64,000 nt of DNA, from assembly GCA_044892505.1 (NCBI GenBank), contig CM097882.1, forward strand, positions 527,000,001 through 527,064,000, in the 5' to 3' direction. The stretch is from Schmidtea nova. Its lineage: Eukaryota. Of this stretch, positions 821-28,192 are shown one piece after another. Every line of letters starts with the position of its first letter. Positions within the stretch are counted from its first letter, which is position 1. A program made the translations under genes and the position numbers. Under the pieces are notes generated by a model, which ran no database searches, was not told where the DNA came from, and saw only the letters and a list, made by a program, of their open reading frames with translations.

Positions 821-970
821 TTGATGCAGCCGAGAAAGAATGATTGTCGTAGATATAAAAATATATGTATTTGTGTGAGAACGGTCTGGTTTTGTTTTGA
901 GTGCATGAGAACAACCTAAGGATAAGGTAGAGTTGTTTAATGACGATAGGATGACCGAAAGATCAGACAC

Positions 971-1966: not shown

Positions 1967-1985
1967 TGGGGGCTCAGCCGGGATT
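1967..1985 (+). promoter_or_regulatory. Primer binding site complementary to the tRNA-Pro 3' end
   Basis: TGGGGGCTCAGCCGGGATT vs canonical tRNA-Pro PBS TGGGGGCTCGTCCGGGATT (17/19), 3 nt after the LTR end. Confidence 0.88.
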
Positions 1986-4298: not shown

Positions 4299-4625
4299 TC
4301 GAAATAAAATATTGAGTAAAAGCCCACGAGAAAGACGACGAAGTGAGGCAGATGAGGACTAAATTACGTATAAAACTATCCGGATAGTGAAGATCAATAA
4401 GCGATAATGGAGATGAATAAATGATATTGAGGATAAATGATGAATAGTGAAAATGAATAGCGAATAATGAGGAATAAGGGTTGAAAGAAACCGAATTAAT
4501 AACGAAAGAGTTAAAGGTGCGCACCTGGGTATTGATAAATGCGAGTAAAGCTGATTATGTGGCCTAATGATGTTAAAGTATGCATACAAGGAGGAGTAGC
4601 AAAGTAAAGTGAATAAGTGGAGGGT

Positions 4626-5088
4626 GCTGACTGGAAAACCCAGCAGACCATGAGATTCGATGAGAATAAAATGAAACCGGTTTGTTAAGACAGGTAAAGT
4701 GGTAAAGACGCTAGCTGGAAAACCCAGCAGGTCAATGATAACGATCAGGAAAGATCGAGAGAATAAAAGGGAGTAACAATAAAGTGGTGAAATTGAGGAC
4801 GCTGACTGGAAGACCCAGCAGGTCAAAAGTGATGATCATCGGAGCAAAGAACAGGTAAAAGTCGACAGTGAAGAGATAAAGGGTGGAGAATAAGAGCGCT
4901 GACTGGAAAAACCCAGCAGGCTAATGAAACGACAATTGAGGTCGAGAATAATGAAGCAGAAGTAAAAGGTGAGATTAAGAGCGCTGACTGGAAAATCCAG
5001 CAGGCTAATGAGATAATGAGTGATGTTGAGAGTAATCAAGTCGAGATAAAAGGTGAGATTAAAGGCGCTGACTGGAAAACCCAGCAGG
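4626..5088 (+). repeat. Six dispersed copies of a hairpin motif GCTGACTGG-AAAAC-CCAGCAG
   Basis: Copies at 4626, 4710, 4801, 4898, 4983 and 5067, spaced ~85-97 nt. Confidence 0.92.
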
Positions 5089-5964
5089 CCAACGAGAGAT
5101 GTCAGTGGAATTAAAGGTGAGTAGAGATGAGAATTGAAATGAAGTAGTAAACGCAGTATGAATAGGAAATAAAGCGAATAGTTGAGAAACAGAGTAATCG
5201 ATAGATAAGGGGAAATTTGAACTCAGAGCCAGAGAAGCCTGAGAAAAGTAAAGGGAATAATAAGAGCGCTGAGCGACAAAGTAATTGGGGAACTGGGGAA
5301 AAGTAATTGGTGTATTTGATAAAGAATAGATAATTGATGCGACTGCATAGATAATTTAAATAGACTTAAAATCAAGGGAAATGGGAAAAATGGGGATCTT
5401 CAGGAATTATGACTACACCCGTGAGAGGGACGAGAAACACGATAACGGGGACGTATCGTGTAAGTGATTATTTGTTTTAAGGAAACAAATCAATCAAGCA
5501 ATTCAAAGCAATCTAGCAGTCAGAGCAATCAAAGGAAACAAAGCAAAGAAGAAGCAAAGCAAAAGCGGAGTAGAAAATCAATTGAGAATATAAGAAGTTG
5601 AGGAATAGACAAAATTGAGGGACGAGAAACAAGATCAGGTATAATACCAATCTTAACGGAAGCAGAAAGAAAAGCAGCGAAAAGGACAAGAACAGGTAAC
5701 AAGCCTAAGCAACAAAAGAACAAACAAGTAGAGATCAGCGATAATTCGAGTAATAAAGAGAATCAAGAAGAAAACCCAGAAGATCTAGAAGTACAAAACG
5801 AAGTAGAGACGATAGACAGTGAACTAGTCAGGGAAAACAGAACAAGAAGCGAATCAAGAGATAACGAAACAGAGAGTAGTGAAGAAGAAGAGTCGAATCC
5901 GGAAACAAGTGGTGAACTAGAAGCAAAGAAAACTAGTACAGTATTCCAAGACAGTGGAATCGGG

Positions 5965-11900: not shown

Positions 11901-14900
11901 TAAAATGGATTTCTTATTCCATAGAGGACAAGCCTCATTACAAAAAGTGTACTACGATCTGATAAATAACGATTGTATACTGAATCGGGAAATATTGAAG
12001 ACAAAGTTGGCCGTAGCGATTACGAATCCAGATAGCGCGATGCCGTTATTACCACTGAGAGAAGGACATTTCGGAAGAGTGGTTGGAGAGGCAATGTATG
12101 TATACATTTGCGAAAAGACACACGCATCGCTAGCAGCAACAACGCAGTTGAAACCTGGACAATGTACAAACGAACTAGAAATCGATTATAAAGGAAAAGT
12201 ACGATACGTTCAACCGGTGACGAGAATCATCAATCCACCAGGATTTGAACCAAATCCATTCAACTGTAGTAACGCGTACGGACCGCTTTATCAGAAGCCA
12301 GATGGCAAATGGGTAATGTTCCCAGGAAGAACCGAAGTATTAGCACCAAGAGAATTCGAGCTAATGCAGTTATCGAAGGATAGACAGTTCAGCGACGTAG
12401 ATGTCTCAAACAACGGAATCTATAGTCCAAAGGATTTAGAAGCAGCAAGGCAGAATATATTATTCCCGGCAAGAAGAGAAGCATTACTGTCAAATATCGT
12501 AACGATAACGGGAGGAACGGAGTATCGAGAAGGACCGAATTACGAACTGCTGTTGTCACCGGCACATTTCAAAAAAGCCACGGAAAATATGATGAAGGCA
12601 ATGTGGGGAAGATTCCTGATATTCGGACAAATGATGGCTGGAATACTGGGTGTCATATTGATAATACAAATTGTCAGAGTGATAATAACGCAAATGTTAG
12701 CGTGTTTCGATATCTACAAGAGAGAAAAGAAAGTGAATTGGAAGATGGTAGTAGGATTTTTACCATTCCTTGCGAAAACGATGGTGTTGCACGGACACTC
12801 AAAAGACATACATCGAATAAAGAGGTTATTGAAGATACTTGCAAAAATGAAAGGAACAAACGAAGATGTCGGAAGGAAATTCAAAAAGATAATGCAAGAC
12901 GAACAAGCAAGGCGACAACTCAAGAAAGAAAGGAAAGGATTATGGGAAAGAGTGAGAGGATATCGAACACAAGATGATTCAAGTAATGATGAGGATGACG
13001 ATGACGATCGAGGAGGACAAGCGAATATAAACCAGATTCCACAGTATAACGAAAAGAGTGCAGTTGAGAATTGGAGATACAGCGCTCCACCTCAGTCAAT
13101 GTACAACGAACCGATATACAAAGCGAAGCCGAATATGATGCAGATGATGCCGATGACAAGTATATACCCGATAATTCCAGAAGGATGCAAAGTAAAACGA
13201 GGTAGTAGCGTAAACTCGTTGGAAGACACGCACACGATAGCAGTTATGTCCACAAATATGGGACCCATCTTAACAACAACCGTAGAAATAAACGGAAGAG
13301 AAATCGAAGCTATGATCGATACAGGCGCGAATATTTCGGCGATCGACATTAATTATATACCAGAGAAAAATCAAGGAGAAATCGAGAAGACGAATGTACA
13401 TGTAATCGCGTGCAGTCAAGAGACAGTAGAAGTAGCCGGAAGATGGTTTGTAAAAATTAAGCATCGAGGTGCAGAGATCAACACGTACATCGCTGTAATA
13501 CCATCGCTGAGTGTACCATGTATTATTGGAACTGACCTGATGCCAGACCTGTTCAAGGAAATCGTAATTGATCTAGGAGCAATGAAGCTAAAAGATAGAA
13601 CAGGAAAAATCTGCAGAATGAAAGTTAAAGTAGCAAGCGCGGAACAAATAGTAGTGCCAGCGAGACATGAAATGATGTGTTATGTCAAGATCGATTCGAC
13701 AATCAAAGGAGACATGATATTCGAACCAAATAAGAAGTTCGAAGCAAAGAAAGAATTACCAATGGCAAGAGAATTGGTTACGATAAATCAACAAGGAGAA
13801 ATACCGATTAATCTGGTAAACTTCGACGAAGAGGACAAGATAATATACGAGAATGAGAATTTGGGTAAATTGACACCCATGTCCGAAATCGAAATACCAG
13901 ACAAGAATGAGAAAAGCAAAGGCGAATTACCATGGAAAATCGACAGTGTGTTGTTAGACGAACGACAAAAAGAACAGTTACAGAAACTGTTGATGGAATA
14001 TAAAGATATATTCGCAGCATCAGATTTAGATCTAGGAACATGTGATGTAACATTACACACGATACCGTTGACGGACGAAACGCCAATCGCATTACGACCA
14101 TATAAATTGGCAGAAGCTCAAAAAGCAGTGGCAGAAGAAGAGGTACAAAAGATGTTAGATGCAGAGGTCATCGAACCCAGTTGCTCACCCTGGCAATTCC
14201 CGGTGGTGATGGTGAAAAAGAAGGATGGAACTCAGAGATTCTGTATCGATTACAGACGATTGAACGCAGTTACGAAAAGAGATACGTACCCACTGCCAGA
14301 CATAAACGAAATGCTGTTGACACTACAAGGAGCAGCTTATTTCACGTCACTGGATTTAAAAAGCGGATATAGGCAGATCAAAATGAAAGACGAGGATAAA
14401 GAAAAGACAGCATTTACAATCGGACGAGATCTGTACCAATTCAAGAAAATGCCGTTTGGGTTAACAAACGCGCCAGCATCATTCCAGAGATGCATGAATT
14501 TCGTAACACATGGCATAAAACAATGCATGGTGTATATCGACGATCTATTGATCTACTCCGCAACATTTGAAGATCATTTACAAGACATCAGAAATGTGTT
14601 CGTGAAATTAAGGCAGTGGAAACTGAAATTGAAGCCGTCAAAGTGCGATTGGGCAAAAGAGAAAGTGACATTCTTAGGTCACATTGTATCAGCAAAAGGA
14701 AAAGAACCCGATCCAAGGAATATCGAAAAAGTCAAAGAATGTCCACCACCCAAGACAGTGACTCAAATACAAGAATTTCTGGGATTGTGTGGATATTATC
14801 GAAAATTCATCAAGGACTATGCAGGAATATCAAAACCAATGCAAGAATTGGTAAGACAAGATGTGTCGTTTGTATGGGGAATAGAACAGCAAGCAGCATT

Positions 14901-17900
14901 TGAAACATTACGAGATAAGCTGATTACAGCACCAATACTGGTCCATCCAGATTTTAAGAAGCCATTTCTGTTGGCAACAGATGCAAGTGGATACGCAGCA
15001 GGAGCAGTACTAGGCCAATTTGATGAAGAAGGCAAAGAGAGAGTAATCGGATATTACAGTCGAACGTTCAGGAAGCATGAAAGGAATTACTCAGTCACGG
15101 AAAGAGAAGCCTATGCGATAATATTGGCAATCAAGCATTTCAAATACCTATTGTGGGGTCATGAAATATATATCACAACGGATCATCAACCGCTAGTATG
15201 GTTAGGTCAACATAAAGAATCGTCAAGTAGATTGATGCGTTGGGCGATGCAGTTACAGGAATACTCGCCGTTCATAAAGTTTAAAGCAGGAAAAGCAAAT
15301 GCAAACGCGGATTGCATGTCAAGGTTTACATTTCCAGAATTGGTGAACCTGAATGCTCTAAAAATATGTGCATTAATAGCGGAAGATTTGGATTTCAGCG
15401 AACTAAGGAAAGATCAACTCGAAGATGAGGAGTTGGGATTGATCAGCAAGTATTTGAAAGAAAGGGAAATAGAAATATTCGGCAAGAACCAAACGTTGCG
15501 CGAACATATGCAGAAATATCAGCACCGATACGTGATGGAAAAAGGATGGTTATTGATACAAGATGGAGAACGAAGATTAATGTGCTTACCTGCGAATAGA
15601 CGAAAGGAAATCATGACTCAATATCATGACGGAAAATTAGGTGGACATATGTCAGCAAAAAAGACAATCGGGAGATTGAGACAAAAGTATTTTTGGCCAA
15701 CCATGGAAGATGATGTGAAAGAATGGATAAAGAACTGCTTAACCTGTGCGACAAGAAAGAACGTCGGAACGAAGTGGAAAACACCACTAAAACCAATGCC
15801 AATACCTGCAGAACCTATGGCGACGATAGCAATGGATGTAGTTGGGCCATTGCCGGAAAGTTTAAAAGGAAATCAGTACATATTAGTAGTCACGGACTAT
15901 CTAACAAAGTTCCCAGAAGCATTCGCAATACCGGATCAAAAGGCGAAAACAGTCGCAAGAATATTGGTGGAAGAGATATGCTGCAGATACGGAACACCAA
16001 AGAAAATCCTAACGGATCAAGGAACAAATTTCATGAGTGAAATATTGGACGAAGTTACGAATTACTTCAGAATTGCGAAATTACGAACATCCCCATACCA
16101 TCCACAAACGAACGGACAAACAGAAAGATTCAATGGAACATTGATACGCATGTTGTCAAATTACGTCAGCAAACATCAAACTGACTGGGACGAGTATATC
16201 AACTTGTGTTTAATGGCATACAGAATGTCAATACATGCGGCAACAAAGCTAAGTCCATTCCAACTGATGTACGGAAGAGATTGCAACTTACCGATCGATT
16301 TAGAATACCAACCACCATTATCACAGTATATGGAGGTTGACGATTACGTTACAAAGTTCAAAGAAAGAATGCAAGAAATCTGGAAAACGGCGGAACTGAA
16401 CATCAAGTTCTATCAAGAAAGTTATAAGGATCTACATGATCAGAAAAGGAACGTGAAAGCACATGATTTAAAAGTTGGAGATTGGGTGATAATCGAAACA
16501 CCAGAGATAATACCCGGTACGGTCAAGAAACTCCAACGACCAGGCAAAGGGCCATACGAAATAACAACCGTAAACGAAAATAATGTGCGAGTACGATTGG
16601 TGAACAATCCATTGGTAAGACCGATATACGTGAATGCATGTCGATGCAGGAAAATACCAAAGACAGCAACTCTATCACCAGAGAAACGGGTGATGACAAG
16701 ATCACAGACGGCGAGAATTAATATGTTGCGAGTACAACAAAAGCCGCAAACAAGTCTAGAAGACAACCGAAGAGAAGTAATAGACCTCAAAGAACTGGCA
16801 AAGAGGACCAGAGAAATTATACCAGAATGGAAATGGTGGTTCGATTTCAATATACTGTCAGAAGTACGGAAGAATGTAATGGAGTATGCGAAAGACAGGA
16901 CAGCGCATCCAATAACAAGAACGCTGCTAGAGGAGATCCCTCAGACATTGAATCTACAAGACAAAGATGGAAACACAGCGTTGCACAATGCAATCAAGCA
17001 CGGTGGAAACGAAAAAGTGAAAGAGATTGTGGAGATGATACTCGAAGGTGGAGGAGAAATTGACAAAGTGAACTGGGAAGGAATTACTCCACTGATGATG
17101 ATGACCATTCACGGAAGAAACGATGAGATAATCAAGCTATTCGGAAACACCAGATCGAATTGGATGACAAAAGATAAAGAAGGACGAACATTCTTGAATC
17201 ATGCAATTGATAGAGCGAATCACCGAATACTGAAGTATATTACGGAAAATGCCACGTGGGAAATCGACGAACTAACCAGAGGATCAATCATGAAACAAGC
17301 AATCGGGGTAAGGAACAGTAAAACCTGGAGAATATTGCTGAAGTGGAAACGACCAGAAGGAGATTCATGGGTCGTAAATTGTAATGAAGTATTCACAAGG
17401 GGAGAAAATGCGTTACTGAAACATCTACTAGAGGTAACATACGATCCAAAAACACTTGCAGTATTGATAGCGAGAGATACGCTACGGGTTAGTGAGAACC
17501 CAAGAGAATACAAGCTGGAAGACAGAAAGAAAGAATTATTCGGATTAATCAAGAGATGGTGTGATAAACAATGGAATCCGGATATGAGCTTCGAACATTT
17601 CTATGACATCCAAAAGCAGCACAAAGAAATAAGCAAGCAATATAAAGAGCTGATAGAAGCATTGAAATATGGACAGTTCTTCAGACAAGCAGTGTATCAA
17701 GACCAACGAATGAAACAGATGCAAACGCGAATAAGAAGCAAAGCAGTGTTGTTCAATGCAAAAGCTGATTATCAAGAGAGATTAGACGCAATCGTAGCAA
17801 AAGCACAAGAAAAACTATCGGACTTCAAAGGGAATAAAAACTCGTTGGAGATACTAGGAGCGATTAAAGAAAAAGTGCACAGATACGCACAAGGAGATTA

Positions 17901-20862
17901 TAACGAGAATGACATAGAAACGATCAAAAATCAAATGCCAGTGGCATTCCTATTATCGAAGGATTGGAGATTGCCGATACACTGGGCATTACGTCGAAAG
18001 AAAGAAAACGAAGTGTTAGAAATAACGAAAACAATGGTCAAGTGCGAAGCAGATATGAATACGGTTGATGATAATGGAGATACAATCATGATAATCGCAG
18101 CAAGGAAGAAGACGAACTGCAAAGTGCTAAGTGAATTATACGAAGCAGGAGCAAAAATCGAAGGGAAAAATGGAAAGAATAATTCCATCATAGATATCGC
18201 AATACAGTGGAACAACTTCGAGATGATCAAGTTCATGAAGTCCATCAAGAAACAAGATGATATCGAATACCTGGCAAATAACGTAAAGAATTTCAGTCTG
18301 ACAGTAATGATACACGACATAGAGAAAACAAGAGCATTACTAACATGGGTGAATCCGATCACCAAGGAACCGGCATTCAAGATCAATGACCATATGGAAC
18401 AGAATCAGAATTGGTGTATCAGAAGCGCGTTGTTAAGACACAAAAAGCCAGAGATAGTAGAAGAATTCTTAAAGAGAAGAGATTTGAAGTTCACGAACAA
18501 TCCAAAGGAACAGGAACGAATGGGAAGATGGAAAGACTTGTTCAGAAAATATGTGAATGAATGGGCAAATGCCAAAGAAGCGATCAAGCAAAGTAGACTA
18601 AAGGACATAGAACCATCCAAGGATATGGAAATACGTGAATTCGAGTCTAGCACACTCGCGGTTCAAGCGTATGAAAGATTAATCGAAGAAATTAATGTCG
18701 AGGACGACATTTTTAAAGGACCAGGGGGTGGTTCCAAAGATCACAACGATAAAGGAGACGATGAAGAGAAGAACAACGAAGACAATGACAACAAAAGAAC
18801 GGAGGATAATGAAAAAGAAAGACAAGAAGAACCGAAGCCAACGAGAAACGACAAGAAAAGAGAAGCAGAAGAACGAGAAAACAGTGGAACAAAAGACGAA
18901 CGTACAAACTATGGAAAACGAACAGGAAGTCTACTTTTGAGACCGGAAATGTTGTGTATCGCGATATTGATAACAATCATAGGACAAGGAGAAGCCAAGA
19001 AACAATACGTCACGCTGGAAATAATCAGAGGAAACGAAGTATACGAAAGAATATGCTGGAAAGAAAACCTGAAGAAAAACGACACGCTGAAGTGTATATT
19101 GTCAGATCTGAAGCGAGACGTCATCCAAATCAAAGGATTGGAGAAAGAAAAGTCATACATAATATGCGCAATAAAGCAGAGAGGAGAACCAAAAGCACCT
19201 CAAGTAACTGCATGTCAATTATATAAAGCAACAGAAGCGCTGAAAATACAGAAATGGATTGGGAAAAGAAGCGAAGAGACAACGAGAAGAACAGAAGTGG
19301 AACCAGAGAAAGGAAAAAATCAAACCGAAGCAGAAGAGGGAATCAGAAACCGAACAGAGAAAGAAAGAACAACCAAAAATTCAGCGGGCAAATTAACATT
19401 CCAACCAGAATTGATATGTGTAGCATTAATATTAATCCTCATTAAGAGAATCATGGAGGACATAGATATCAGCGTGATGACGTTAGTAAACATCCAAGAT
19501 CAACGAACAACGAATGGAAGATGTTGGGGACGAAACAATGAGGTAATTGGAATCAGCGAAACAAGAGAAAGTCGAGAAGCAGAGACAAACGAAGAAATTG
19601 AGATAACCGAAATGGAGACAGATAGAAAATGTGAACTATGTCTCATGGAAAAAGCAGCAAACGGAAACAAACCAGGAACAAGCGAGTGTAAAGTGTTCCA
19701 AACAAAGGAGATAATTGAGTTCCCAAAAAGAAAGAAACAAGACCAAGAAACGATTGCGAAAGAAATAGTAACCGTGGAGATAAAAAACATTGGTCGGAGA
19801 ACAATTGGGATGTGTTGGAGAAAATACATCGGACTATCGACCAACAACATAATACCGCAATGTAAAACGAGAGAACGAGGAATCCCGTTTCAACTAAATG
19901 GATTCGAAGTCGGACAAGCTTACGAAATTTGCGTAATCCGAAGAATAAGAGAAGTAATACAAAGAAGCCTGGAGTGCAGACTGTACAAGACGCCAGAGCA
20001 AATTAACGGAACGAGAACGATTGAAATGGGAAGAAGTCAACCGAGGAAAAGAAAGTCAAGAAGAACCACAACAACCAACAGTCAAGGATTTCAACAGGCA
20101 ACAACAGAAAGGACGACAATAGAAAACGAACCAGAATCAACGACTCTGATAATATGGAAGATCCATAAAAAGGTCCTAGAAATCTGTTGGACATTAATGC
20201 CAAACAGTATGGGAAAGTCCCCACGAAACTGTCAAAAGACATCAAATGATAAAGGAGAAATAATCGAAGTAGAAATGAGGAAGTTGGAAATAAACGCAGA
20301 ATACGAAGTATGTGCAATTGAAGAAGTGGGTACACAAGGAAATCCACAAGAAAGGTGCGAAACCTACTACACACCAATAAAGAGGAGAATCAAAAAGTTA
20401 GAATTCCGAGAATTGAGTCAGAAAAGAGAACAAACAGAGACGGAGGAAATACTACAAAATCAACAAGAAAGATGGGAACCAGAGAAAGTGATCGAAGAAG
20501 TCAGACGGAGACAACAACAATACGAACAATGGGAAGCAGAATGGAAAGGTCAATATGGCGTGATGATAAACCAAAGTGAAACTCCGAAGATGAGCATTGG
20601 GAAAACAATAATGGGATTAATCAGCATGGGAGTATTCATAGGGTGTATACCGCTGATAACGATCATGATAGTATGTTGGAGATATGGCATGAGAAATAAG
20701 ACCATAGCAGTAAAATGGCCGGACGTAAAGGTCACGAACTACAACATAAAACTACCAAAAGAAGTACGAGAAGAGCTAAAAAGACGATCAAAACACGAAG
20801 AGATGTGGGTACAGATCGAGGACGAGGAACTGTACGAAGGAAAACCAGTAATAGTTGTATAG
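5965..20862 (+). CDS. 4965-aa Gag-accessory-Env-Pol-accessory polyprotein
   Basis: Single open frame containing CCHC knuckles, glycoprotein, PR, RT, RNase H, integrase, ankyrin repeats and a C-terminal membrane module. Confidence 0.97.
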   Translation: MSEHREDLREKFKGEPFNGDASRLDTFLKEFGIFVDICGWSAETLANRIPLYLKDSALDLYIEKRSGSSPPRTWEAIKEFFQQTFGINKVLNEAFDEFSARKQRRNESNAVYASELRKLAKLAFKRGSPVDEELMTALFVRGLRRPDIRAQVGCKGCKTVDEALEAANLFELHMAMNDMRITAVMGKTTEDEEQGKRNMNQSIPHSQRLFKEPPARKNNGYITVNTNGGNSYNDRQNRQCQTCGKNGHWQQDCFQNVACKLCGQKGHSENRCYGKTCYTCGKTGHMSRDCNQQRSWSNSGNRPNYGNRPSHGNQGQQRNNPNSSANEASMKEAKLRQEVSRLHEIIESMAKGSQQAAQPKINMIQLIEAEAERENRESQQKHNQEWARVRREEEQVRQQRLQQLKKGNPRINMMRAMMEEKQQDESDELEVKEKRNEEQKQEEVRQEVETTEQNQKVEEVEKETETEKETEKETNQEEEVRIKQRGMLVIMPNDHVWRFKYDVKEEVGRLFNKVNEMMPGVTKLPREAFLQTEDLPEVKLKMTDIWEDMGVTETKINVMIIREVEPEKIPPPVKHQTRISRIFKGKIRRRRLEEIDELGKRMGKAEIMGDESEITQEVSKNEARPIAHIGMLRHPRQELSDEEDDSEVSSLAGDMLKEPENEDKKMEVVETIETLSVTEDEIQKLMDNALEVIHNEEFIDGNRYRKFIRAVWQMKYKKWLQEREVRVIQEFIERLLKEPLNEYIIQIWINECSPRIWIRNPMTDGIYRWVEDRLGSSYKDKFIYSENGLVRKGTHMIDTGIWPGEITTLSICNTKKEENLQGIVKEANTCYEMRIKPQLLEAKERILAENLNTMIEQIIQQIKKHRKELTKNEYENLKQCIENIRDTSQTRHSNFKTDKLIAKMGKEMFKRGEVSDLKITVRLPNEETRQIEVIPDSKVGEIVDVINETILQREREDEFENDIAIKYKEHLLNERDERRAYKIGIWDNYQTIHVIRMDDVQRATPRDEERKKKRQEDVMRKLRQIVEIYRNWQMKPEWETILGELDLNRRRLTPVEKQWDNKEKCWKVKRGVYEEDPEGEDRYERNTKRICMVTRRLLPTDLDGPETAVIWAELEKQKTSELIELLRGNTRGKRQTIKGLAQFIISNGEDMTNLRKVAKAIAEYKRVNEWCPEQLDDVIKKWRNKEFAEETPQKIHLRIMYPNQRKEEFWVMLTEKVKSVKEKLMYELPFHLQHQGRSLDNNLEIWLTPVQLDLMNTLTVAQIVGQPLKFKEEKKPKGSMSTPSPMKSTMTPGTSSGQARTTPIKTRERTPPEAYDVDEILTDSDEAIEELTKLTQKPTANIFDRIIEMPITSPAEIDDQGVEQEVVIEMINDSEDEQEQPQFTQEMERWLEQRANEGRDVTEETGRATRFVETGTGMEKRPRGRPKIDPATTIPKTREERRQEQWEICLKKLDKIAEIRGKEENQVCQEEWLTKTIMDVLAIIDPELKNLWRINEPSTKAKMLHNAIAPIMPELIKAKTKSNHLDWQGTTMLIKRLLNGAETDSKYLVAISYTIYNLLTLSRGSPKSSPMGRHIKNTAMIIEKEIEPYILRKGGWEKFIKENQTKEGSNVMRKKLEGVLREMENRQTMQGNGRSTLNLNSIIMMMLVCLLSTEGVTTFEVFDCDQMKLGEKYSLRGTEQCKDATPVELKEIKKEQWYHVYQEAELIKTMVNECKVQKTRFAFYCGRGHYSAIVMPGTEREPIILQGEDCEALFKHGEVTTRDKIKIKGKPGMMLQQTYYVAGRITGGEGYCQGETYPIFGAPATNLVVMDTYIVELKSYEAFFEPTTGEMKTLSMCKIDRSMCQTGMSTLVYKPKVNECQLQLLQGAKFDEIQGKTFQEEDDDDKARAKHLKEALENKRQLKSEQREKRIEMRTTPTVLITTNQDVGMRFIKGKATLKCSTTVYETNYPGIYVSKQEVPNAKPKIDTMDIKLHLYVNNKMDFLFHRGQASLQKVYYDLINNDCILNREILKTKLAVAITNPDSAMPLLPLREGHFGRVVGEAMYVYICEKTHASLAATTQLKPGQCTNELEIDYKGKVRYVQPVTRIINPPGFEPNPFNCSNAYGPLYQKPDGKWVMFPGRTEVLAPREFELMQLSKDRQFSDVDVSNNGIYSPKDLEAARQNILFPARREALLSNIVTITGGTEYREGPNYELLLSPAHFKKATENMMKAMWGRFLIFGQMMAGILGVILIIQIVRVIITQMLACFDIYKREKKVNWKMVVGFLPFLAKTMVLHGHSKDIHRIKRLLKILAKMKGTNEDVGRKFKKIMQDEQARRQLKKERKGLWERVRGYRTQDDSSNDEDDDDDRGGQANINQIPQYNEKSAVENWRYSAPPQSMYNEPIYKAKPNMMQMMPMTSIYPIIPEGCKVKRGSSVNSLEDTHTIAVMSTNMGPILTTTVEINGREIEAMIDTGANISAIDINYIPEKNQGEIEKTNVHVIACSQETVEVAGRWFVKIKHRGAEINTYIAVIPSLSVPCIIGTDLMPDLFKEIVIDLGAMKLKDRTGKICRMKVKVASAEQIVVPARHEMMCYVKIDSTIKGDMIFEPNKKFEAKKELPMARELVTINQQGEIPINLVNFDEEDKIIYENENLGKLTPMSEIEIPDKNEKSKGELPWKIDSVLLDERQKEQLQKLLMEYKDIFAASDLDLGTCDVTLHTIPLTDETPIALRPYKLAEAQKAVAEEEVQKMLDAEVIEPSCSPWQFPVVMVKKKDGTQRFCIDYRRLNAVTKRDTYPLPDINEMLLTLQGAAYFTSLDLKSGYRQIKMKDEDKEKTAFTIGRDLYQFKKMPFGLTNAPASFQRCMNFVTHGIKQCMVYIDDLLIYSATFEDHLQDIRNVFVKLRQWKLKLKPSKCDWAKEKVTFLGHIVSAKGKEPDPRNIEKVKECPPPKTVTQIQEFLGLCGYYRKFIKDYAGISKPMQELVRQDVSFVWGIEQQAAFETLRDKLITAPILVHPDFKKPFLLATDASGYAAGAVLGQFDEEGKERVIGYYSRTFRKHERNYSVTEREAYAIILAIKHFKYLLWGHEIYITTDHQPLVWLGQHKESSSRLMRWAMQLQEYSPFIKFKAGKANANADCMSRFTFPELVNLNALKICALIAEDLDFSELRKDQLEDEELGLISKYLKEREIEIFGKNQTLREHMQKYQHRYVMEKGWLLIQDGERRLMCLPANRRKEIMTQYHDGKLGGHMSAKKTIGRLRQKYFWPTMEDDVKEWIKNCLTCATRKNVGTKWKTPLKPMPIPAEPMATIAMDVVGPLPESLKGNQYILVVTDYLTKFPEAFAIPDQKAKTVARILVEEICCRYGTPKKILTDQGTNFMSEILDEVTNYFRIAKLRTSPYHPQTNGQTERFNGTLIRMLSNYVSKHQTDWDEYINLCLMAYRMSIHAATKLSPFQLMYGRDCNLPIDLEYQPPLSQYMEVDDYVTKFKERMQEIWKTAELNIKFYQESYKDLHDQKRNVKAHDLKVGDWVIIETPEIIPGTVKKLQRPGKGPYEITTVNENNVRVRLVNNPLVRPIYVNACRCRKIPKTATLSPEKRVMTRSQTARINMLRVQQKPQTSLEDNRREVIDLKELAKRTREIIPEWKWWFDFNILSEVRKNVMEYAKDRTAHPITRTLLEEIPQTLNLQDKDGNTALHNAIKHGGNEKVKEIVEMILEGGGEIDKVNWEGITPLMMMTIHGRNDEIIKLFGNTRSNWMTKDKEGRTFLNHAIDRANHRILKYITENATWEIDELTRGSIMKQAIGVRNSKTWRILLKWKRPEGDSWVVNCNEVFTRGENALLKHLLEVTYDPKTLAVLIARDTLRVSENPREYKLEDRKKELFGLIKRWCDKQWNPDMSFEHFYDIQKQHKEISKQYKELIEALKYGQFFRQAVYQDQRMKQMQTRIRSKAVLFNAKADYQERLDAIVAKAQEKLSDFKGNKNSLEILGAIKEKVHRYAQGDYNENDIETIKNQMPVAFLLSKDWRLPIHWALRRKKENEVLEITKTMVKCEADMNTVDDNGDTIMIIAARKKTNCKVLSELYEAGAKIEGKNGKNNSIIDIAIQWNNFEMIKFMKSIKKQDDIEYLANNVKNFSLTVMIHDIEKTRALLTWVNPITKEPAFKINDHMEQNQNWCIRSALLRHKKPEIVEEFLKRRDLKFTNNPKEQERMGRWKDLFRKYVNEWANAKEAIKQSRLKDIEPSKDMEIREFESSTLAVQAYERLIEEINVEDDIFKGPGGGSKDHNDKGDDEEKNNEDNDNKRTEDNEKERQEEPKPTRNDKKREAEERENSGTKDERTNYGKRTGSLLLRPEMLCIAILITIIGQGEAKKQYVTLEIIRGNEVYERICWKENLKKNDTLKCILSDLKRDVIQIKGLEKEKSYIICAIKQRGEPKAPQVTACQLYKATEALKIQKWIGKRSEETTRRTEVEPEKGKNQTEAEEGIRNRTEKERTTKNSAGKLTFQPELICVALILILIKRIMEDIDISVMTLVNIQDQRTTNGRCWGRNNEVIGISETRESREAETNEEIEITEMETDRKCELCLMEKAANGNKPGTSECKVFQTKEIIEFPKRKKQDQETIAKEIVTVEIKNIGRRTIGMCWRKYIGLSTNNIIPQCKTRERGIPFQLNGFEVGQAYEICVIRRIREVIQRSLECRLYKTPEQINGTRTIEMGRSQPRKRKSRRTTTTNSQGFQQATTERTTIENEPESTTLIIWKIHKKVLEICWTLMPNSMGKSPRNCQKTSNDKGEIIEVEMRKLEINAEYEVCAIEEVGTQGNPQERCETYYTPIKRRIKKLEFRELSQKREQTETEEILQNQQERWEPEKVIEEVRRRQQQYEQWEAEWKGQYGVMINQSETPKMSIGKTIMGLISMGVFIGCIPLITIMIVCWRYGMRNKTIAVKWPDVKVTNYNIKLPKEVREELKRRSKHEEMWVQIEDEELYEGKPVIVV
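6682..6834 (+). other. Gag nucleocapsid: three CCHC zinc knuckles
   Basis: CQTCGKNGHWQQDC, CKLCGQKGHSENRC, CYTCGKTGHMSRDC. Confidence 0.95.
10873..12790 (+). other. Envelope-like glycoprotein domain (signal-like helix, Cys-rich ectodomain, TM)
   Basis: Hydrophobic LNSIIMMMLVCLLSTEG; FDC..SL..C and CKVQKTRFAFYCG Cys pattern as in chuvirus-type G proteins; TM MWGRFLIFGQMMAGILGVILIIQIV. Confidence 0.75.
13260..16730 (+). other. Pol core: aspartic protease, RT, RNase H, integrase
   Basis: DTG 13318, YIDD 14533, ATDAS ~14974, H-x(6)-H...CxxC ~15623-15750, integrase core D(MDV)-D(DQG)-E(TERFN). All catalytic residues present. Confidence 0.97.
16945..18245 (+). other. Ankyrin-repeat region fused after integrase (two clusters)
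   Basis: NLQDKDGNTALHNAI, KVNWEGITPLMM, TKDKEGRTFLNHAI, NTVDDNGDTIMIIAA, GKNGKNNSIIDIAI. Confidence 0.9.
18931..20862 (+). other. C-terminal type I membrane module with three Cys-bearing FN3-like repeats
   Basis: Signal-like LLLRPEMLCIAILITIIGQGEA; three repeats with xICW..C..(I/L)xGLExxxxYx(I/V)C..C (19009, 19768, 20140); TM 20596-20680. Confidence 0.65.
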
Positions 20863-20986
20863 AGGGTGGAATATGAGTGTAAATAATAGTGTAAAAACCA
20901 ATGCATAACCGTATACGTATGGGTATAAATATTATAAAACATAAAAACAGAAAAAAGAGAATGATGTATATAATCTAGAAAAAACG

Positions 20987-21337
20987 ATGAACCAAGAAAA
21001 TATCGAGATGTCAATGATGACGAGATGGAAAGTACAATGCGACCTGCTAGCCAGAACAGTAAATGAATTACAGAGCCAGTTGACGGCAAAAACGCAATTA
21101 TTAACCGAGAGTTATAACGGTAATTTCGAAGCAATGAACAAAATCGAGATCCAACAAATACAGATAAACGAATTACAGAACGAGAACCGAACATTAAATG
21201 AAGTGAACAACTGGCAAGCAGAGGAAATTGATCGATTAACGAGACATGAAGAGGAGGAGATACCGGATAGTTGGACGAGCTGGATTGTAAATGAGATAGA
21301 CGTGTATCCAGAGCCAGATTCAACTGAGGATGTGTAG
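20987..21337 (+). CDS. Element cargo: 116-aa coiled-coil protein
   Basis: Intact ORF with the element's codon bias and heptad pattern. Ends EPDSTEDV. Confidence 0.7.
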   Translation: MNQENIEMSMMTRWKVQCDLLARTVNELQSQLTAKTQLLTESYNGNFEAMNKIEIQQIQINELQNENRTLNEVNNWQAEEIDRLTRHEEEEIPDSWTSWIVNEIDVYPEPDSTEDV

Positions 21338-21427
21338 TGAATAAGCGGAAAATTGTGTAAATACGTGTAAATAAAGAACCAGAAAAAATCAAAAATATGG
21401 GGAAATTGATGTAAATATTGTTGTAGA

Positions 21428-22840
21428 ATGAGAGCAGAAAGTGAAGCAGATTACCAAACGATCGAGATTCTAAGAAGAGAAAATCGACAATGGGGAGTAA
21501 ATGTGACGTGTGTAAAGTGTAAAAATCTACTGTTAAAACCGAGGCAAACGGAATGTGGATGCAGGATGTGCACCAAGTGTATATTGCAAATAATCAGTGA
21601 AAGTGAGACAAGAAAGTGTCCAGAGTGTGACGATAAACTACTAATCAACGAGACGAAACCAGACAAAGCAATCCAAAAGGAGATCTGGAAGATAAGAACA
21701 GAATGTATAAACCAACCTTGTGAATGGAAAGGACAAATAATCGAGCTAAGACAACATCTGGAAAAATGTGAAAACAAGAAAGCGATATGTGAAAAGTGTC
21801 AACAGACGATAACCATCAAGCAGTCGAAAAAGCACAAGGATGAGTGCAAAGCAGAGATAGTAGAGTGTCAATACTGCAAACAAAGAGAGACGAGAGAAGT
21901 AATCGAAACAGAACATCTCAACGTAGCAGAAGAGAAAGTGTGCAGAAAATTCAGAGGAATTTGTCCAAGTAATTGCGGAACCGGAGAAGAAGTGATGTTG
22001 AGAGAACATTGGGAACAGTGCGAATCCAGACCAAGAAAGTGCGTATGGAGTAAACAAGGATGTGCAGTACAGATAACGAGCAAAGAGATGAAAGAGCATT
22101 TGGAAACGGAAACGGTACAACACGCCGAGATGTTAACAGCAAATTTGAACGGAATGGAACAAACCATACAGAAACTGGGAAAAGAAATCGAATCTCAGAG
22201 GATAATGACGGAGTTATTACTAGAAACAAGAGAGCAATTCGAGCTCACCAGAGAGAAAATGATGGAGAAAATCAAAGTCATAGAGACGCTAGTAAAGGAA
22301 GTAAATGTACGACATCAAATGTGGATACGAGATACAGAGGATATCGAGAATTTACCTGTTGCACCATATATATGGAAAATCAAGAATTTCAACGAAAAGT
22401 TCGCAGCAGCAAGAGCAGGAAGCCAAGTGTCGGTAACAAGTCCACCATTTTATCTGTGGAAAAATGGATACAAAGTTCGAATGAGAATTTATCCAAATGG
22501 AGATGGATCAGGAAAGGAAACGCATGTGTCATTATTCTTTGCGTTGTGTAAAGGTGGTTACGACGACATATTAGAATGGCCACTAGAGACAAAGGCGATA
22601 ATGAGAGTGAGAAACTCGAAAGAAACAATAGCGAGAGTATTCAAAATTGATGGTAAGCACGAAGCTTACAAAAGACCGACCACAGAATGTTCATTAGCGA
22701 CTGGAGAACCAAAATTCATACCACACCAAACAATGTGGGAAATGTTGTATGACGACAACTTATATGTAGAGTTGGAGATCGAAAAGAAAGCAAGTACAAC
22801 AGTGACGAACACGAAGTCAACGAAAGGATGGTTGGAGTAG
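21428..22840 (+). CDS. Element cargo: full-length TRAF-family protein (RING, TRAF zinc fingers, coiled coil, MATH), intronless
   Basis: RING CVKC..PRQTECGCRMCTKC..CPEC; zinc fingers C.N..CEWKG..L.QHL..C; MATH YIWKIKNF..SPPFY..GYKVRMRIYPNGDGSGKETHVSLFF..DDILEWP. Confidence 0.95.
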   Translation: MRAESEADYQTIEILRRENRQWGVNVTCVKCKNLLLKPRQTECGCRMCTKCILQIISESETRKCPECDDKLLINETKPDKAIQKEIWKIRTECINQPCEWKGQIIELRQHLEKCENKKAICEKCQQTITIKQSKKHKDECKAEIVECQYCKQRETREVIETEHLNVAEEKVCRKFRGICPSNCGTGEEVMLREHWEQCESRPRKCVWSKQGCAVQITSKEMKEHLETETVQHAEMLTANLNGMEQTIQKLGKEIESQRIMTELLLETREQFELTREKMMEKIKVIETLVKEVNVRHQMWIRDTEDIENLPVAPYIWKIKNFNEKFAAARAGSQVSVTSPPFYLWKNGYKVRMRIYPNGDGSGKETHVSLFFALCKGGYDDILEWPLETKAIMRVRNSKETIARVFKIDGKHEAYKRPTTECSLATGEPKFIPHQTMWEMLYDDNLYVELEIEKKASTTVTNTKSTKGWLE

Positions 22841-22929
22841 TCAGAGTGAACGACCCTGTAAATAAAGTGTAAAAATCGACAACAACCATAAACGTATAGT
22901 ATAACCAGTGAAAATTTGTAAATTGCAGA

Positions 22930-24090
22930 ATGGAAAACGCAAATGAACACGTAATCGAAGATGAAACGAGAAACGAGATGTCGAACGAACGAGAAGAAAT
23001 AGAAAGGGAGATCGAAAGGAGATGTAAAGTGGAAGTGGAACAAAAAACCAGAGAACTGCGCGAAGTGATGACAAATAATTTCTACGAAAAACTGAAATGC
23101 GAGAGACGAATGGAGTTATATCAACTGGAACTCGAGGAAGTGAATAAAGAGATGATACAACTGACAACACAAATAGAGAAGCTAAAAGGAACGAATGTAC
23201 GAAGTCGACAGAAGATAGAAGAGGTATATCAGTTGATGAGGAAACAAGCAGAACATTATAAAAATATGATGAAAACGCGAAGGGAAGAGAGGGAGAAACA
23301 AGAGGAAAAGATGGAGGGAAAAATACTAGCAATCAAGGCTCAAGCGAGACATTGGAAAATGGAGTCGAAACGAGTGTATAAAGAAGCCAAAGAGATAATC
23401 AGAAAGACAGCATACAGCGAAGATTGGAAACTGTATCAAGAGATAGACGAATTAAAAGAGGAATTAGAACAGAGAAAGCGACAAGAACAGACCAACAAAG
23501 AATGGAGTCGAAAACGGCAACGATTTATTCGAGAGCAAGCAAAGGAACTAAAGAAAACGCAATGGCAAATACAGATGATAAATGGAGAAATGCGAGGTAT
23601 CAGACAGAAAGAGGAAGCGGAAAGACAAAAGTTGATCAGGGAAAAAGAAAGTCTGGAAAGAGATGTAAATGGTTATCAAGGGGTGGTGACCCAAAAGAAA
23701 ATGGAGTTGAAAGCAGTGAAAGAAAGACATGCGGAATCAAACCGAGCTTACGAGGAAAACATAACGAACTTGACGAAAGAAAATGAGGAGCTGAAACAAC
23801 AAATAATAACCCTGAAAGCAGAGAAAGAAACCATAGAAGTAGAAACCGAACCAACAGAAGTAGAAGCCCTGAAGAGAAAAGTGGAAGAGATGGAAAGACA
23901 AATGGAAACTCTGAGCGAACAATCAGACTATATGGAGTATCTGTTAGATGAAGAGATACAAATCTCTCGAACGTATCAAGATGAAATTGCAATGTGGCGA
24001 AGCAGAGTGGTGTGGTTACCGTTTATACCACCACCACCAATGGAGCTCCAAGATGAAGGGTTTCATGAACCAGAGGAGACGGATGTGTAA
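22930..24090 (+). CDS. Element cargo: 386-aa long coiled-coil protein ending ETDV
   Basis: Intact ORF, E/K/R/Q-rich heptads, PPPP near the C terminus. Confidence 0.8.
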   Translation: MENANEHVIEDETRNEMSNEREEIEREIERRCKVEVEQKTRELREVMTNNFYEKLKCERRMELYQLELEEVNKEMIQLTTQIEKLKGTNVRSRQKIEEVYQLMRKQAEHYKNMMKTRREEREKQEEKMEGKILAIKAQARHWKMESKRVYKEAKEIIRKTAYSEDWKLYQEIDELKEELEQRKRQEQTNKEWSRKRQRFIREQAKELKKTQWQIQMINGEMRGIRQKEEAERQKLIREKESLERDVNGYQGVVTQKKMELKAVKERHAESNRAYEENITNLTKENEELKQQIITLKAEKETIEVETEPTEVEALKRKVEEMERQMETLSEQSDYMEYLLDEEIQISRTYQDEIAMWRSRVVWLPFIPPPPMELQDEGFHEPEETDV

Positions 24091-24163
24091 AAAGAGGCGA
24101 AAAATCCGTGTGTAAAAATGTACAAATCGATGTAACAGGTATTAATCAGTAGAATAATCAGAA

Positions 24164-24688
24164 ATGAACTGGCTCAAAACCCTACCAATCCTAACGATTA
24201 TGTTAACTGCAACAATAATGAACTGTTCAACAACCGAAATACAAAGAACCCTGTCAAACGAGATATCCCAAGAGATCGAAAAACAACTAAACGAAGTCAG
24301 AGAAGACTTGAAACAATTAATCCGGCAAATGCGAATCAGTCATGATCATCGCAAACCCTTACAAACCCTATTCAATCAAATCGAGAAGATCCGAGAAATC
24401 CATAAAACCTTCCAAGATCACCTAAAGCCAATCAAAGGTCAAACCCAAATCGAATCCGAAATCCGAAACAGATGGATCATCGTTGGAATAGTCACAATGA
24501 CAATATTAACAATCATCTTGATCATCGTGATTACGTATACCCTATATCGAATCAGAAGCCTCAAACAACAACAAACGATAATGTGTAGATGCGCCAAAAG
24601 AGAAGCAAAAACCCAACAAAGAATGAGAAGCCATCTACGACAAATTCAAGCCCGATACGAAATGCAGTCAACAAGTGAAAGGACCTGA
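24164..24688 (+). CDS. Element cargo: 174-aa predicted type I membrane protein
   Basis: Signal peptide MNWLKTLPILTIMLTATIMNCS, short helical ectodomain, TM WIIVGIVTMTILTIILIIVITYTLY, basic tail. Confidence 0.78.
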   Translation: MNWLKTLPILTIMLTATIMNCSTTEIQRTLSNEISQEIEKQLNEVREDLKQLIRQMRISHDHRKPLQTLFNQIEKIREIHKTFQDHLKPIKGQTQIESEIRNRWIIVGIVTMTILTIILIIVITYTLYRIRSLKQQQTIMCRCAKREAKTQQRMRSHLRQIQARYEMQSTSERT

Positions 24689-24891: not shown

Positions 24892-26412
24892 TGATGTTGG
24901 GCCAGCCAAATCGAGCAGCATCTGAAAATAATATACAATCAACAAAATAAATTAAATACAGAATAACAACAAAATAAATTACCAACACCAAAGCGTAACA
25001 AAATAGGCGGCAACATCTAAAAGAAATAAAATATTAATCAAAACAACAAAAATCTTCAAAACTCACTCATGCGAAGCAGATAAAATTGGAATATGACAGC
25101 GCGTGGGCGGATGTCACCAAAGACCTAAAACAAAAATAAAATAAAATAAATTGATGACTAAGAAAAACTTACCGCATGATTAACCAAACAAATCGGCAAG
25201 TTAAGTTAGGCAGCAAAAAGCCGACAACATGAAAAAATGAAGCAAACATACACACATACTCGATGCTGATTGGGTAACCAACAACACCGGTTCAGTATAA
25301 ATACTGAAGTCAAATCAGTATTTGACAATGTCATTTTTTCCGAGTGCAAGTTGTAACTGATAACTTGTAATAACCTTGTATCGGAAACCAGTTGGAAATA
25401 AAAGGTATGTTGGAGTTATGTTTTGTATCATTCATATAAACCCTCATAATTATAATTGTTAATCGTATTAAAATCCATAAGGTTTTCCGGAGGCCTAACA
25501 GCCTGACGGATTCTTGGGGCCTCTCAGCGCAACACAATCTTTCGGTTGTGAGGTGCTGATGCGGCGGGACCATAGGTGTTCTAAATATTTAACAAGCGGA
25601 AGGGGGAAGTGCACATAGGATATCTCATGCCATCGTAACATCAGTATGGGTAGAAACAATTGATGGGCGTATCATCTGTCACGACAACATCGAGTACATG
25701 GGTATACATAAAAGACGTGTTGATAGACAAAAAGTGTCCAGCGTTCGTGAAGTCAAGTAGAGTAACGACAGCTTTGTGCAGAGGGTAAGTATCATGATAA
25801 ATTGAGCACTGACGATGATAGAGATATATAACGCATGAGTCATGTGAGTCAGAGGCCGACAGTGCTAGCATCAGAGGTAAACCATGAATCCACAGGATAT
25901 CCCAACATATATATACGCCTCTCGAAGGGTACGAAGGATAGACCCACGAAATGTAATGCAAGTACAATCTGTACCCAATTAATCTGAGTAAGGGGTCGAT
26001 CATGTTCCCCGGATGATGTGACCCTTGATAGTTGAAAATGAGGTATGGAGATAACACCTGAGGAGTGATTGAGTATGATTGCTGTAGATACAAACCAAAA
26101 TGGTCTCTGAAATGATGATATTCAAACATAATAAATGGTCAAGTGATCATCGTAGATGAAAACGGATTGTCATAAGCGGCACTGAATTTTTGCGTGGCCA
26201 AATCATATAAGCAACTTGATATAGTGAATACACTCACCCGCAGGACAATAGCATACAACCTACATAATATCTTAAACATCGGACCGGTTCAACACTGAAC
26301 CACCAACTGCAACCTACAGAGTTTCACCCTTGAGTCGAGTAGGTCGACGGTTATAAATAATTGCGCGCACCTGACAAATTCACCACAATAACATATTCTT
26401 GTCTTCAGCAAT

Positions 26413-27048
26413 ATGATAAAGACCGAAGAATACCAAAGAAGTCTGAGCACCTCTCGACAGATGAAAGTGGAAGATTATGTCATCCGGAAACCACGACGCA
26501 TCCGTTCCGTCGTCCGGCCAAGGAGGATCCCTACCATCGATGGAGAAATGGAAGCCCCACGCAGAATTAGCGAAACTGCGCGTCGACATCTACGTCGGTG
26601 GACAAGACACCATATGAGTGCAGCCGCAGGTATTCCGGCTTGCGCCTTCACGATACAATTACGATGGGAAGGAGACCCCGATTGGATGTCCACTATGGAC
26701 CCTGCCGAACCAAGGACCGATAGGTGGTTCTTTCAATTCCTCGACGGACAGAGACGACCCCGCTGGGTGTTGAGCAATGAAATGATGACGGGAAGGGCTC
26801 TATATCAATTAGGGTACATGCTGCTAGACAGGCCTCGGTGTCGCTACACTGAGGAAGTCTTCGCTTATTCCAACGCGCCAGGAAGTGTTTCCGTGGAACA
26901 ACACCCCGAGCCCAAGGAGCTTCGCCTCTGGGAGGTGTTTATCTACAAAGATAAGCTGAGTTGGGACCCAGCCCCAGAAATGTATTTGGAGAATGGAATT
27001 CGTCGCGACGAGCATCCTGCCGATCAGGAATTGAGGACATTCAGTTGA
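26413..27048 (+). CDS. ORF-A copy in the 3' LTR
   Basis: Identical to 185-820 except W->L. Confidence 0.75.
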   Translation: MIKTEEYQRSLSTSRQMKVEDYVIRKPRRIRSVVRPRRIPTIDGEMEAPRRISETARRHLRRWTRHHMSAAAGIPACAFTIQLRWEGDPDWMSTMDPAEPRTDRWFFQFLDGQRRPRWVLSNEMMTGRALYQLGYMLLDRPRCRYTEEVFAYSNAPGSVSVEQHPEPKELRLWEVFIYKDKLSWDPAPEMYLENGIRRDEHPADQELRTFS

Positions 27049-27198
27049 TTGATGCAGCCGAGAAAGAATGATTGTCGTAGATATAAAAATATATGTATTT
27101 GTGTGAGAACGGTCTGGTTTTGTTTTGAGTGCATGAGAACAACCTAAGGATAAGGTAGAGTTGTTTAATGACGATAGGATGACCGAAAGATCAGACAC

Positions 27199-27798
27199 AT
27201 GACAGATACTACCATTAATGATATATTTACAGACATGACGGAAACCAAGGGCAGAGATTTCAAGTCAGAGGCGCGAGAACATAAGGCGCGCTCGCGAGTT
27301 CTGGAGAATCGGTTAAGGCAGCTGAATGAGGAGCATCAGCGGATTAAAACGACCTGGTTTAACCCAGAGCGGGTTAAGTCCATCCTGCAGGCTAGGTACA
27401 GGGCAGAACGAGTAGCTGAGGAACATGCCAGAGAGATTGCAGCCCTGAAGTTGGAGTTGGCGAATTATTTGAAGGTGTCGACCCGAGACTTCATCACCGA
27501 ACAATTGCGCCCCGTGATCAGAGCGAGCACCTTTAATCGATGGATAGACACGATAGCGGTGACTACGAGCACCCAAACAGAGAATGCATCGACCGTAGCC
27601 ACGGCTACTACCGTGACGAATACAATTCCCGCAGGCACACAACGCACAAAGAGAAGGAATCGCCTCGGCGCGAAGAAGCGGAGGGAAAGACGCGCGTATG
27701 CAGATCGTCTCGGAATAGAAGTAGACTTGCTCAGCGGTCTATCTGAACAAGAACTTCTGAATGTTATCAGACCCTCTGTATTATTAAATCATAAATAA
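27199..27798 (+). CDS. ORF-B copy in the 3' LTR
   Basis: Translation identical to 971-1570. Confidence 0.78.
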   Translation: MTDTTINDIFTDMTETKGRDFKSEAREHKARSRVLENRLRQLNEEHQRIKTTWFNPERVKSILQARYRAERVAEEHAREIAALKLELANYLKVSTRDFITEQLRPVIRASTFNRWIDTIAVTTSTQTENASTVATATTVTNTIPAGTQRTKRRNRLGAKKRRERRAYADRLGIEVDLLSGLSEQELLNVIRPSVLLNHK

Positions 27799-28192
27799 AT
27801 GTATAAAACGAATGACTTGACTTGTTTTGTTTGATTGTGGAATGTTTGAGAATCGAATGTAACAAAAACCCGGGTTCATTTAAAGATGCAGATATCTAAA
27901 GAGTAAATTACCCTAGAACAAAGGAAAGAGCGCATTAGAAGTGGGACCGAAAGAAAGCCACAGACACCTTCTAACGGTAGTGGTGGACCCGTGAATAAAC
28001 AAGGGAATAGTAGCCGAAAGGTTGCTCACCTGCCTTGTCATTTCACAACGTTGACACAGTACCAACATGATGAGTAGTTAGGGATACATCATGGGTGTCA
28101 GCGGGGGAATGTTTTTATGTTGGCGAGATTCACCCTAACGTATAAAATCATAAGGATCTCAGTTGTCACTCCAACCAACACACCAGCATAAG

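Follow-up and report, generated by a model that had tools for sequence, protein, structure and literature searches.

How does a giant retrotransposon express genes that lie inside its long terminal repeats (LTRs), ahead of gag and behind pol? This question is raised by a 64,000-nt stretch of the Schmidtea nova genome (assembly GCA_044892505.1, contig CM097882.1, forward-strand positions 527,000,001 to 527,064,000; here called the window), in which positions 1 to 28188 are occupied by a young LTR retrotransposon of Burro-like gypsy type. Besides its polyprotein gene, the element has seven cargo open reading frames (ORFs): two within the LTR (ATGs at 185 and 971), a RING-finger ORF before gag (2521), and four after the polyprotein (20987, 21428, 22930, and 24164). 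The initial annotation of the window had seen a YAG (Y is C or T) just before nearly every cargo ATG, often after an AATAAA, and proposed either an operon resolved by spliced-leader (SL) trans-splicing or nested alternative splicing. Genomic copies that have lost introns exactly now show that the two LTR genes are cis-spliced from one donor to alternative acceptors, a conclusion of which we are virtually certain.

Two further subfamilies in the same genome, here called D and E, carry the same cargo at 26 to 55% amino acid identity to that of the window; their ORF1 analogues had no significant match to window ORF1. Among the elements compared, four independent genomic events show the exact loss of a GT..AG stretch starting at the leader donor, three of them joining the leader to the LTR-ORF1 acceptor and one joining it to the LTR-ORF2 acceptor. 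In L135, the 3' LTR of a window-type copy, the donor is joined to the ORF1 exon exactly at the CAG acceptor of L012, CATTTCAG, where 836 nt are skipped, and in L134 the joint falls exactly at the TATTCAG of L228 and L230. Compared with L142, both LTRs of one D element (L132/L133) are missing 798 nt running from GT to AG, and the 25 nt on each side contain no mismatch. Both LTRs of another D element (L184/L185) lack a 1,562-nt GT..AG stretch relative to L147, with ORF1 removed and the leader joined to ORF2. All four joins use one donor and an AG 4 to 9 nt before an ATG, at two different acceptors, and the joints share 2 nt (the AG), or 4 nt in L132/L133. Because these copies miss exactly the GT..AG stretch, the splices from the leader to ORF1 and to ORF2 must have taken place, and a loss shared by both LTRs is the expected outcome when a spliced genome is reverse transcribed. 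Eight ordinary internal deletions, found in shortened copies, served as a control; none ended at a listed acceptor, and 6 of the 8 had 4 to 21 nt of alignment overlap at their ends. That survey covered 20 loci; besides the eight flagged deletions, the match list showed two others, which likewise did not end at a listed acceptor, and one copy (L202 to L204) was unmatched to the internal region. Nested alternative splicing, one of the two routes proposed at the outset, is thus upheld by the joining of the leader donor to the orthologues of acceptors 180 and 966. The other route, an SL-resolved operon punctuated by AATAAA, found no support: AATAAA is unenriched and both testable acceptors are cis-spliced. 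The sites concerned are located in the window as follows.

25268 to 25306, plus strand: predicted LTR core promoter, with a GATTGG (reverse CCAAT) box and the TATA box CAGTATAAATACTG; its counterpart in the 5' LTR is the working copy.
25333 to 25404, plus strand: predicted non-coding leader exon (start uncertain, about 25317 to 25333), delimited by ATG depletion.
25405 to 25410, plus strand: shared splice donor AAG/GTATGT (5' LTR copy 823 nt before the window), identified by GT conservation.
178 to 180 (copy 26406 to 26408), plus strand: LTR-ORF1 acceptor, use shown in relatives (L134, L135, and L132/L133).
964 to 966, plus strand: LTR-ORF2 acceptor, use shown in one relative with ORF1 skipped (L184/L185).

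We infer the limits of the promoter and leader from sequence features. The GATTGG box and the TATA word CAGTATAAATAC(T/C)G are kept in the LTRs of all three subfamilies (77 matches; window position 25293). The leaders, counted from 40 nt past the TATA word up to the donor, are nearly free of ATGs: 55 distinct leaders contain 2 in 6,196 nt, compared to 118 expected by composition and 159 in an equal length downstream. An ATG at window position 25328 lies before the 40-nt mark and would be within the RNA only if the start site were further upstream. A donor-like GTA(A/T/C)T, with T-rich sequence behind it, occurs about 110 to 260 nt past the TATA word in all three subfamilies (in the window, its GT is at 25405). 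With search patterns derived from the LTR sequences of the promoter search, the donor GT was kept in 242 matches in the window's subfamily, the 2 matches without the G being exact leader-to-ORF1 joins, and the pattern search gave 0 matches with the donor G followed by a non-T base. In one D-subfamily element (L112/L093 and L186/L187), both LTRs carry C in place of the donor G. In the window subfamily only, an AATAAA (window 25397 to 25404) lies immediately next to the donor; it is absent from D and E leaders, and this placing recalls the suppression of polyadenylation by U1 at the major donor, known in HIV-1 and foamy viruses (PMC12789967).

The acceptor-like sites noted initially at the cargo genes were confirmed. 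YAG ends are located at 180, 966, 2517, 20978, 21426, 22928, and 24161, which is 4, 4, 3, 8, 1, 1, and 2 nt, respectively, before the cargo ATGs. The 3' spacer lengths (124, 90, 89, and 73 nt) also proved correct. The genes and their predicted acceptors are arranged as follows.

185 to 820 (copy 26413 to 27048), plus strand: LTR-ORF1, 211 aa, from the ORF list; no Pfam family.
971 to 1570 (copy 27199 to 27798), plus strand: LTR-ORF2, 199 aa, from the ORF list; no Pfam family.
2515 to 2979, plus strand: RING-finger ORF of 152 aa (2521 to 2979) with predicted acceptor 2517, from Pfam scan and YAG.
20863 to 21337, plus strand: spacer 1 (124 nt, TGTAAATA at 20878), predicted acceptor 20978, and ORF of 116 aa (20987 to 21337).
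21338 to 22840, plus strand: spacer 2 (90 nt, three copies of TGTAAATA, AATAAA at 21370), predicted acceptor 21426, and TRAF-like ORF of 470 aa (21428 to 22840).
22841 to 24090, plus strand: spacer 3 (89 nt, TGTAAATA at 22857 overlapping AATAAA at 22861), predicted acceptor 22928, and ORF of 386 aa, likely coiled-coil (22930 to 24090).
24091 to 24688, plus strand: spacer 4 (73 nt), predicted acceptor 24161, and 174-aa ORF that includes a hydrophobic stretch (24164 to 24688).

Throughout the element, a YAG lies within 8 nt before 159 of 695 ATGs and within 4 nt before 106 of them; the corresponding values for the cargo starts are 7 of 7 and 6 of 7. With one copy per subfamily taken, a YAG lay no more than 8 nt before the ATG in all 12 of the 3' spacers of the three subfamilies; 1,000 shuffles gave a mean of 1.9 such spacers and a maximum of 6. 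Among the fetched loci, YAG was present at 338 of 358 cargo starts, a count in which some copies were fetched, and hence counted, more than once, and in 159 of 171 distinct contexts. At the four 3' cargo genes it was found within 8 nt at 226 of 229 starts, and the AG-to-ATG distance (1 to 8 nt in the window) drifts freely between subfamilies. The 20 misses include 5 spliced copies, 2 E RING starts that were called too far upstream (the homologous Met has a CAG 3 nt before it), and 9 D ORF1 starts, for which the contexts shown have GG in place of AG. In all three subfamilies, the AG of the 3' cargo acceptors is preceded at a distance of 8 to 13 nt by a TGTA(A/T)A word (window 20960 to 20978, 21410 to 21426, and 22917 to 22928), which may be a branch-site or splicing-control element.

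For gag, the predicted acceptor is located further from the start codon.

5466 to 5481, plus strand: predicted gag acceptor, which reads TTTTAAG in the window and TTTTAG in subfamilies D and E; the 483 nt between it and the gag ATG contain no ATG.

This T-rich TTTTAG is aligned across the three subfamilies, with AAG in the window, at 5481. Behind it, all seven copies have 0 ATGs in 483 to 652 nt, where 6.7 to 9.0 would be expected in each, whereas unspliced RNA would present 162 ATGs upstream of the gag ATG. Ahead of its first ATG, the gag frame stays open over 121 codons (window 5602 to 5964), and over 153 to 197 codons in D and E, all sharing a K-I-E/D start; translation may begin here at a non-AUG codon, or the open stretch may be due to chance, the region being T-poor. 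At the RING and four 3' cargo genes, the placing before the ATG and the conservation match those of the LTR genes, and the AG-to-ATG distance drifts freely, as is expected behind a non-coding leader; on this ground these genes, and by similar reasoning gag, are likely spliced from the same LTR leader. The implied introns would range from 1.0 to 25 kb overall and from 3.3 to 25 kb for the six downstream acceptors.

We consider it probable that one LTR leader is cis-spliced to the acceptors of the cargo genes and gag. The LTR promoter would give a single leader exon with one donor, and this leader would be cis-spliced to the first or second LTR gene, as relatives show, and likely also to the acceptors before RING, gag, and the four 3' cargo genes. 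Each message would be translated from the first AUG past the joint. The spliced Gag-Env-Pol message would lack the primer site, and because that site is spliced out, this message would be distinct from the packaged genome.

Several observations weigh against this explanation. The L132/L133 joint has 4 nt of microhomology, and the ORF1 site reads GG for AG in several D copies (6 of 7 unspliced relatives listed), with a CAG 15 nt further up. The pyrimidine tracts are weak at some window acceptors (966 and 24161); several relatives have clear T-rich tracts where those of the window are weak. The gag site reads AAG in the window subfamily, and TATA-like words also occur before ORF1 and before the 116-aa ORF. 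Because the subfamilies are related, the counts of YAG and donor conservation are not independent. Finally, genomic pattern searches found no leader junction at the RING, gag, or 3' cargo acceptors, a blank that says little, because such RNAs would lack the primer-binding site (PBS; about 1967) and would not normally be copied. The leader-to-downstream pattern gave 30 matches, compared to 43 for the control, the only relevant one, judged by the matched letters, being a known ORF1 copy. Further junction patterns gave 3 matches (2 known joins and 1 G-to-C point change), 4 matches (L184/L185 and one element with G-to-C), and 17 matches (L132/L133, one G-to-T change, and 14 unrelated), and the last pattern gave 0. 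In four sequence runs of unspecified kind with contigs spanning the element, the matches listed had no joint or loose end at the acceptors, which is uninformative.

The motifs of the 3' spacers were also compared among the three subfamilies, which are related, with shuffles made by a simple dinucleotide walk. AATAAA had been regarded as punctuation between cistrons, a role that we rejected, since it is not enriched: the 12 spacers contain 10, compared to 11.4 in shuffles, and 220 of 300 shuffles reached 10. It is present in 2 of the 4 window spacers, and its positions do not match across the subfamilies. Of the one-mismatch variants that planarian poly(A) signals include (PMC5068929), ATTAAA alone was counted. 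As to single AATAAA positions, the one reported at 21369 should read 21370, and the one at 1566 exists but overlaps the stop codon. The TGTAAA motifs described in the spacers are indeed present, with 9 across the four 3' spacers of the window. The enriched word is TGTAAATA, found 15 times in the 12 spacers compared to 0.5 in shuffles, and TGTAHATA was found 20 times compared to 0.9; in both cases 0 of 300 shuffles reached the observed count. UGUAHAUA is the Pumilio motif (PMC5580656), and UGUA is reported to be lacking upstream of planarian poly(A) signals (PMC5068929). TGTAAATA may therefore represent Pumilio-type control sites in 3' untranslated regions, and the same reported absence disfavors TGTA as a CFIm poly(A) element.

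The 3' cassette resembles flatworm SL operons in having same-strand genes about 100 nt apart (within the criterion of ≤300 nt) with an acceptor before each (PMC12582326 and PMC8629364). Although the LTR genes are cis-spliced, host SL trans-splicing might resolve the four 3' cargo genes as an operon, either alone or together with some cis-splicing at those acceptors. The spacers of 73 to 124 nt fit the peak at about 100 nt in flatworm operons (PMC8629364 and PMC12582326), SL trans-splicing has been reported for Schmidtea mediterranea, cis- and trans-splicing often share acceptors in parasitic flatworms (PMC12582326), and the 3' acceptors are 22 to 25 kb from the LTR donor. Acceptors 21426 and 22928 fit UUNYAG, the flatworm SL-acceptor word (PMC12582326). 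However, these are only 2 of the 7 window acceptors, poly(A) signals are neither enriched nor matched in position across the three subfamilies, and there is a working cis donor further upstream. The ATG that closes flatworm SLs (PMC12582326, for parasitic species) would stay in frame at only 1 of the 7 window distances. Moreover, both testable acceptors are cis-spliced, even though, in parasitic flatworms, splicing in cis is strongly blocked at SL sites that resolve operons (PMC12582326); because this exclusion failed at both, we did not class the element as an SL operon, and we regard SL resolution of the 3' genes as unlikely. No SL junction was seen, although the genome was not searched for SL sequences. 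We give similarly little credence to a hybrid arrangement, in which the leader is cis-spliced to the nearby genes and gag (message and packaged genome being different RNAs), the 3' cassette is SL resolved, and the Pumilio sites tie its messages to stem-cell or germline control.

Foamy viruses have an internal promoter, and by analogy a promoter near the end of the polyprotein gene could transcribe the 3' cassette, whose acceptors would then be reached by short local splices. Spacer 1 is the best conserved of the spacers, all three subfamilies have TATTATAAAA about 53 nt ahead of the 116-aa ORF, and the window has a donor-like AG/GTAAT at 19543. This possibility seems quite improbable, as a window scan found the GATTGG and CAGTATAAATAC promoter only in the LTR, and splicing would take out the 4 to 5 ATGs of spacer 1. 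The YAGs of the 3' cassette could also be inherited leftovers or translation-start context, with the ORFs read by reinitiation on a long RNA or not expressed, and an alignment shows that a short upstream ORF in the spacer before the 116-aa ORF terminates at the TAG forming the YAG. Nevertheless, YAG is kept at 226 of 229 starts despite changing neighbor bases and distances, and two homologous-looking YAG sites are proven acceptors, which makes such an origin very improbable indeed.

Splicing from a shared leader is similar to what is known for complex retroviruses, which have a 5' major donor near the RNA start, alternative acceptors, and messages for accessory proteins (PMC12789967). The element likewise has one 5' donor and alternative acceptors served from it, two shown and six predicted. 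In contrast to complex retroviruses, it is of gypsy type, two accessory genes are within the LTR and a third before gag, and the predicted introns extend to 25 kb. Retroviral Gag is stated to come always from unspliced RNA (PMC12789967), whereas Gag of the window element is likely made from spliced RNA, as the 162 upstream ATGs and the conserved acceptor-like site argue against an unspliced template. Retroviruses of this type also encode an export factor for unspliced RNA (Rev/Rex type); LTR-ORF1 and LTR-ORF2 matched no Pfam family. Among gypsy-type elements, the extra ORF (ORF3/env, e.g., in the bdelloid Vesta and Juno) is typically expressed from a spliced message (PMC5408684); Vesta and Juno have one extra ORF, whereas the window element has seven plus gag, each with its own acceptor.

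The remainder of the element, which totals 29,522 bp (summed) and is flanked by a 4-bp TAAG target duplication, is organized as follows; the two LTRs are 3,294 bp each and have 3 differences.

1 to 1960 within the window, plus strand: 5' LTR, starting 1334 nt before window position 1, from LTR comparison.
1967 to 1984, plus strand: PBS-like site directly after the 5' LTR, identified from the sequence, which we take to resemble a tRNA-Pro PBS.
5965 to 20862, plus strand: polyprotein of 4965 aa, with Gag CCHC, chuvirus-type fusion glycoprotein, protease, reverse transcriptase, RNase H, integrase, and ankyrins by Pfam scan.
24895 to 28188, plus strand: 3' LTR, 3294 bp, TG...CA, carrying copies of promoter, leader, donor, ORF1, and ORF2.

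Burro1 to Burro4 and GYPSM1 are giant gypsy-like LTR elements of dugesiid planarians, above 30 kb in length (PMC6431247), and the window element is just under that figure. As in these elements, whose polyproteins of about 4,900 to 5,100 aa contain Gag, protease, reverse transcriptase, RNase H, and integrase, all of these domains are present in the window polyprotein, together with an env in frame between gag and pol, ankyrins, and a MATH/TRAF domain (PMC6431247). The env-like region is the fusion glycoprotein PF24664 at residues 1911 to 2252, ahead of the protease at 2438. The MATH/TRAF domain of Burro elements sits in the polyprotein or in an accessory ORF; in a Dugesia tigrina element it is upstream of the polyprotein, whereas the TRAF of the window is a separate ORF downstream (PMC6431247). 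The BIR, BCL2-like, and dUTPase-like motifs had no Pfam match here at an E value of 0.01; in Burro elements they were found by HHpred (PMC6431247). The element is therefore probably a Burro member, likened to Burro1 to Burro4 by description only.

Relative to copies L128, L129, and L130, the LTR genes (window 185 to 1570) diverge most, with 61 to 66% amino acid identity for ORF1 and 75 to 81% for ORF2, compared to 95% for gag and 90 to 93% for RING. This suggests quick evolution or swapping of the LTR cassette. The region upstream of gag (3690 to 4340 and 4620 to 5105) contains tandem 19-nt and 36-nt repeats and a family spaced at 84 to 91 nt, possibly packaging signals. Just upstream of the element, a D-like LTR in the opposite orientation (C1:526992347-526992922, with L013) is apparently interrupted by it. 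Elsewhere in the window, a host gene for a gamma-tubulin complex component (50646 to 52613) has one open frame of 655 aa. Searches with PF24664 and PF22486 returned mostly smaller elements and host TRAF-like genes. Smaller elements (L015:327-1775 and relatives) have LTRs of about 400 bp, the same type of fusion glycoprotein, and a single 3' ORF of 468 to 482 aa with TTTTAG 3 to 6 nt ahead of its ATG; the one such ORF scanned had no Pfam family. MATH-domain matches cluster densely at about 405 to 455 Mb of C2 and are apparently host TRAF-like genes, separate from the many element-borne copies.

Burro elements abound in planarian genomes, and their cargo is of the apoptosis and ubiquitin types. 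BURRO1 RNA has been shown in tissues, in parts of an article that make no mention of trans-splicing or a spliced leader (PMC8532177), and section 7 of the Burro description has nothing on the expression of accessory ORFs, ORFs inside the LTR, or splicing (PMC6431247). Literature searches that excluded Grohme 2018, the planarian SL papers, and supplements, which may hold transcript models, found no paper on the expression route of Burro cargo. Exact splice coordinates are now given for Burro-like cargo, with genomic proof for two of the sites. These results suggest that a gypsy element has the multi-acceptor plan of complex retroviruses at a larger scale, comprising eight acceptors over 25 kb, genes within the LTR, and a gag message that is probably spliced. 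If this is true, solo LTRs would be small two-gene expression units whose donor could splice into host sequence.

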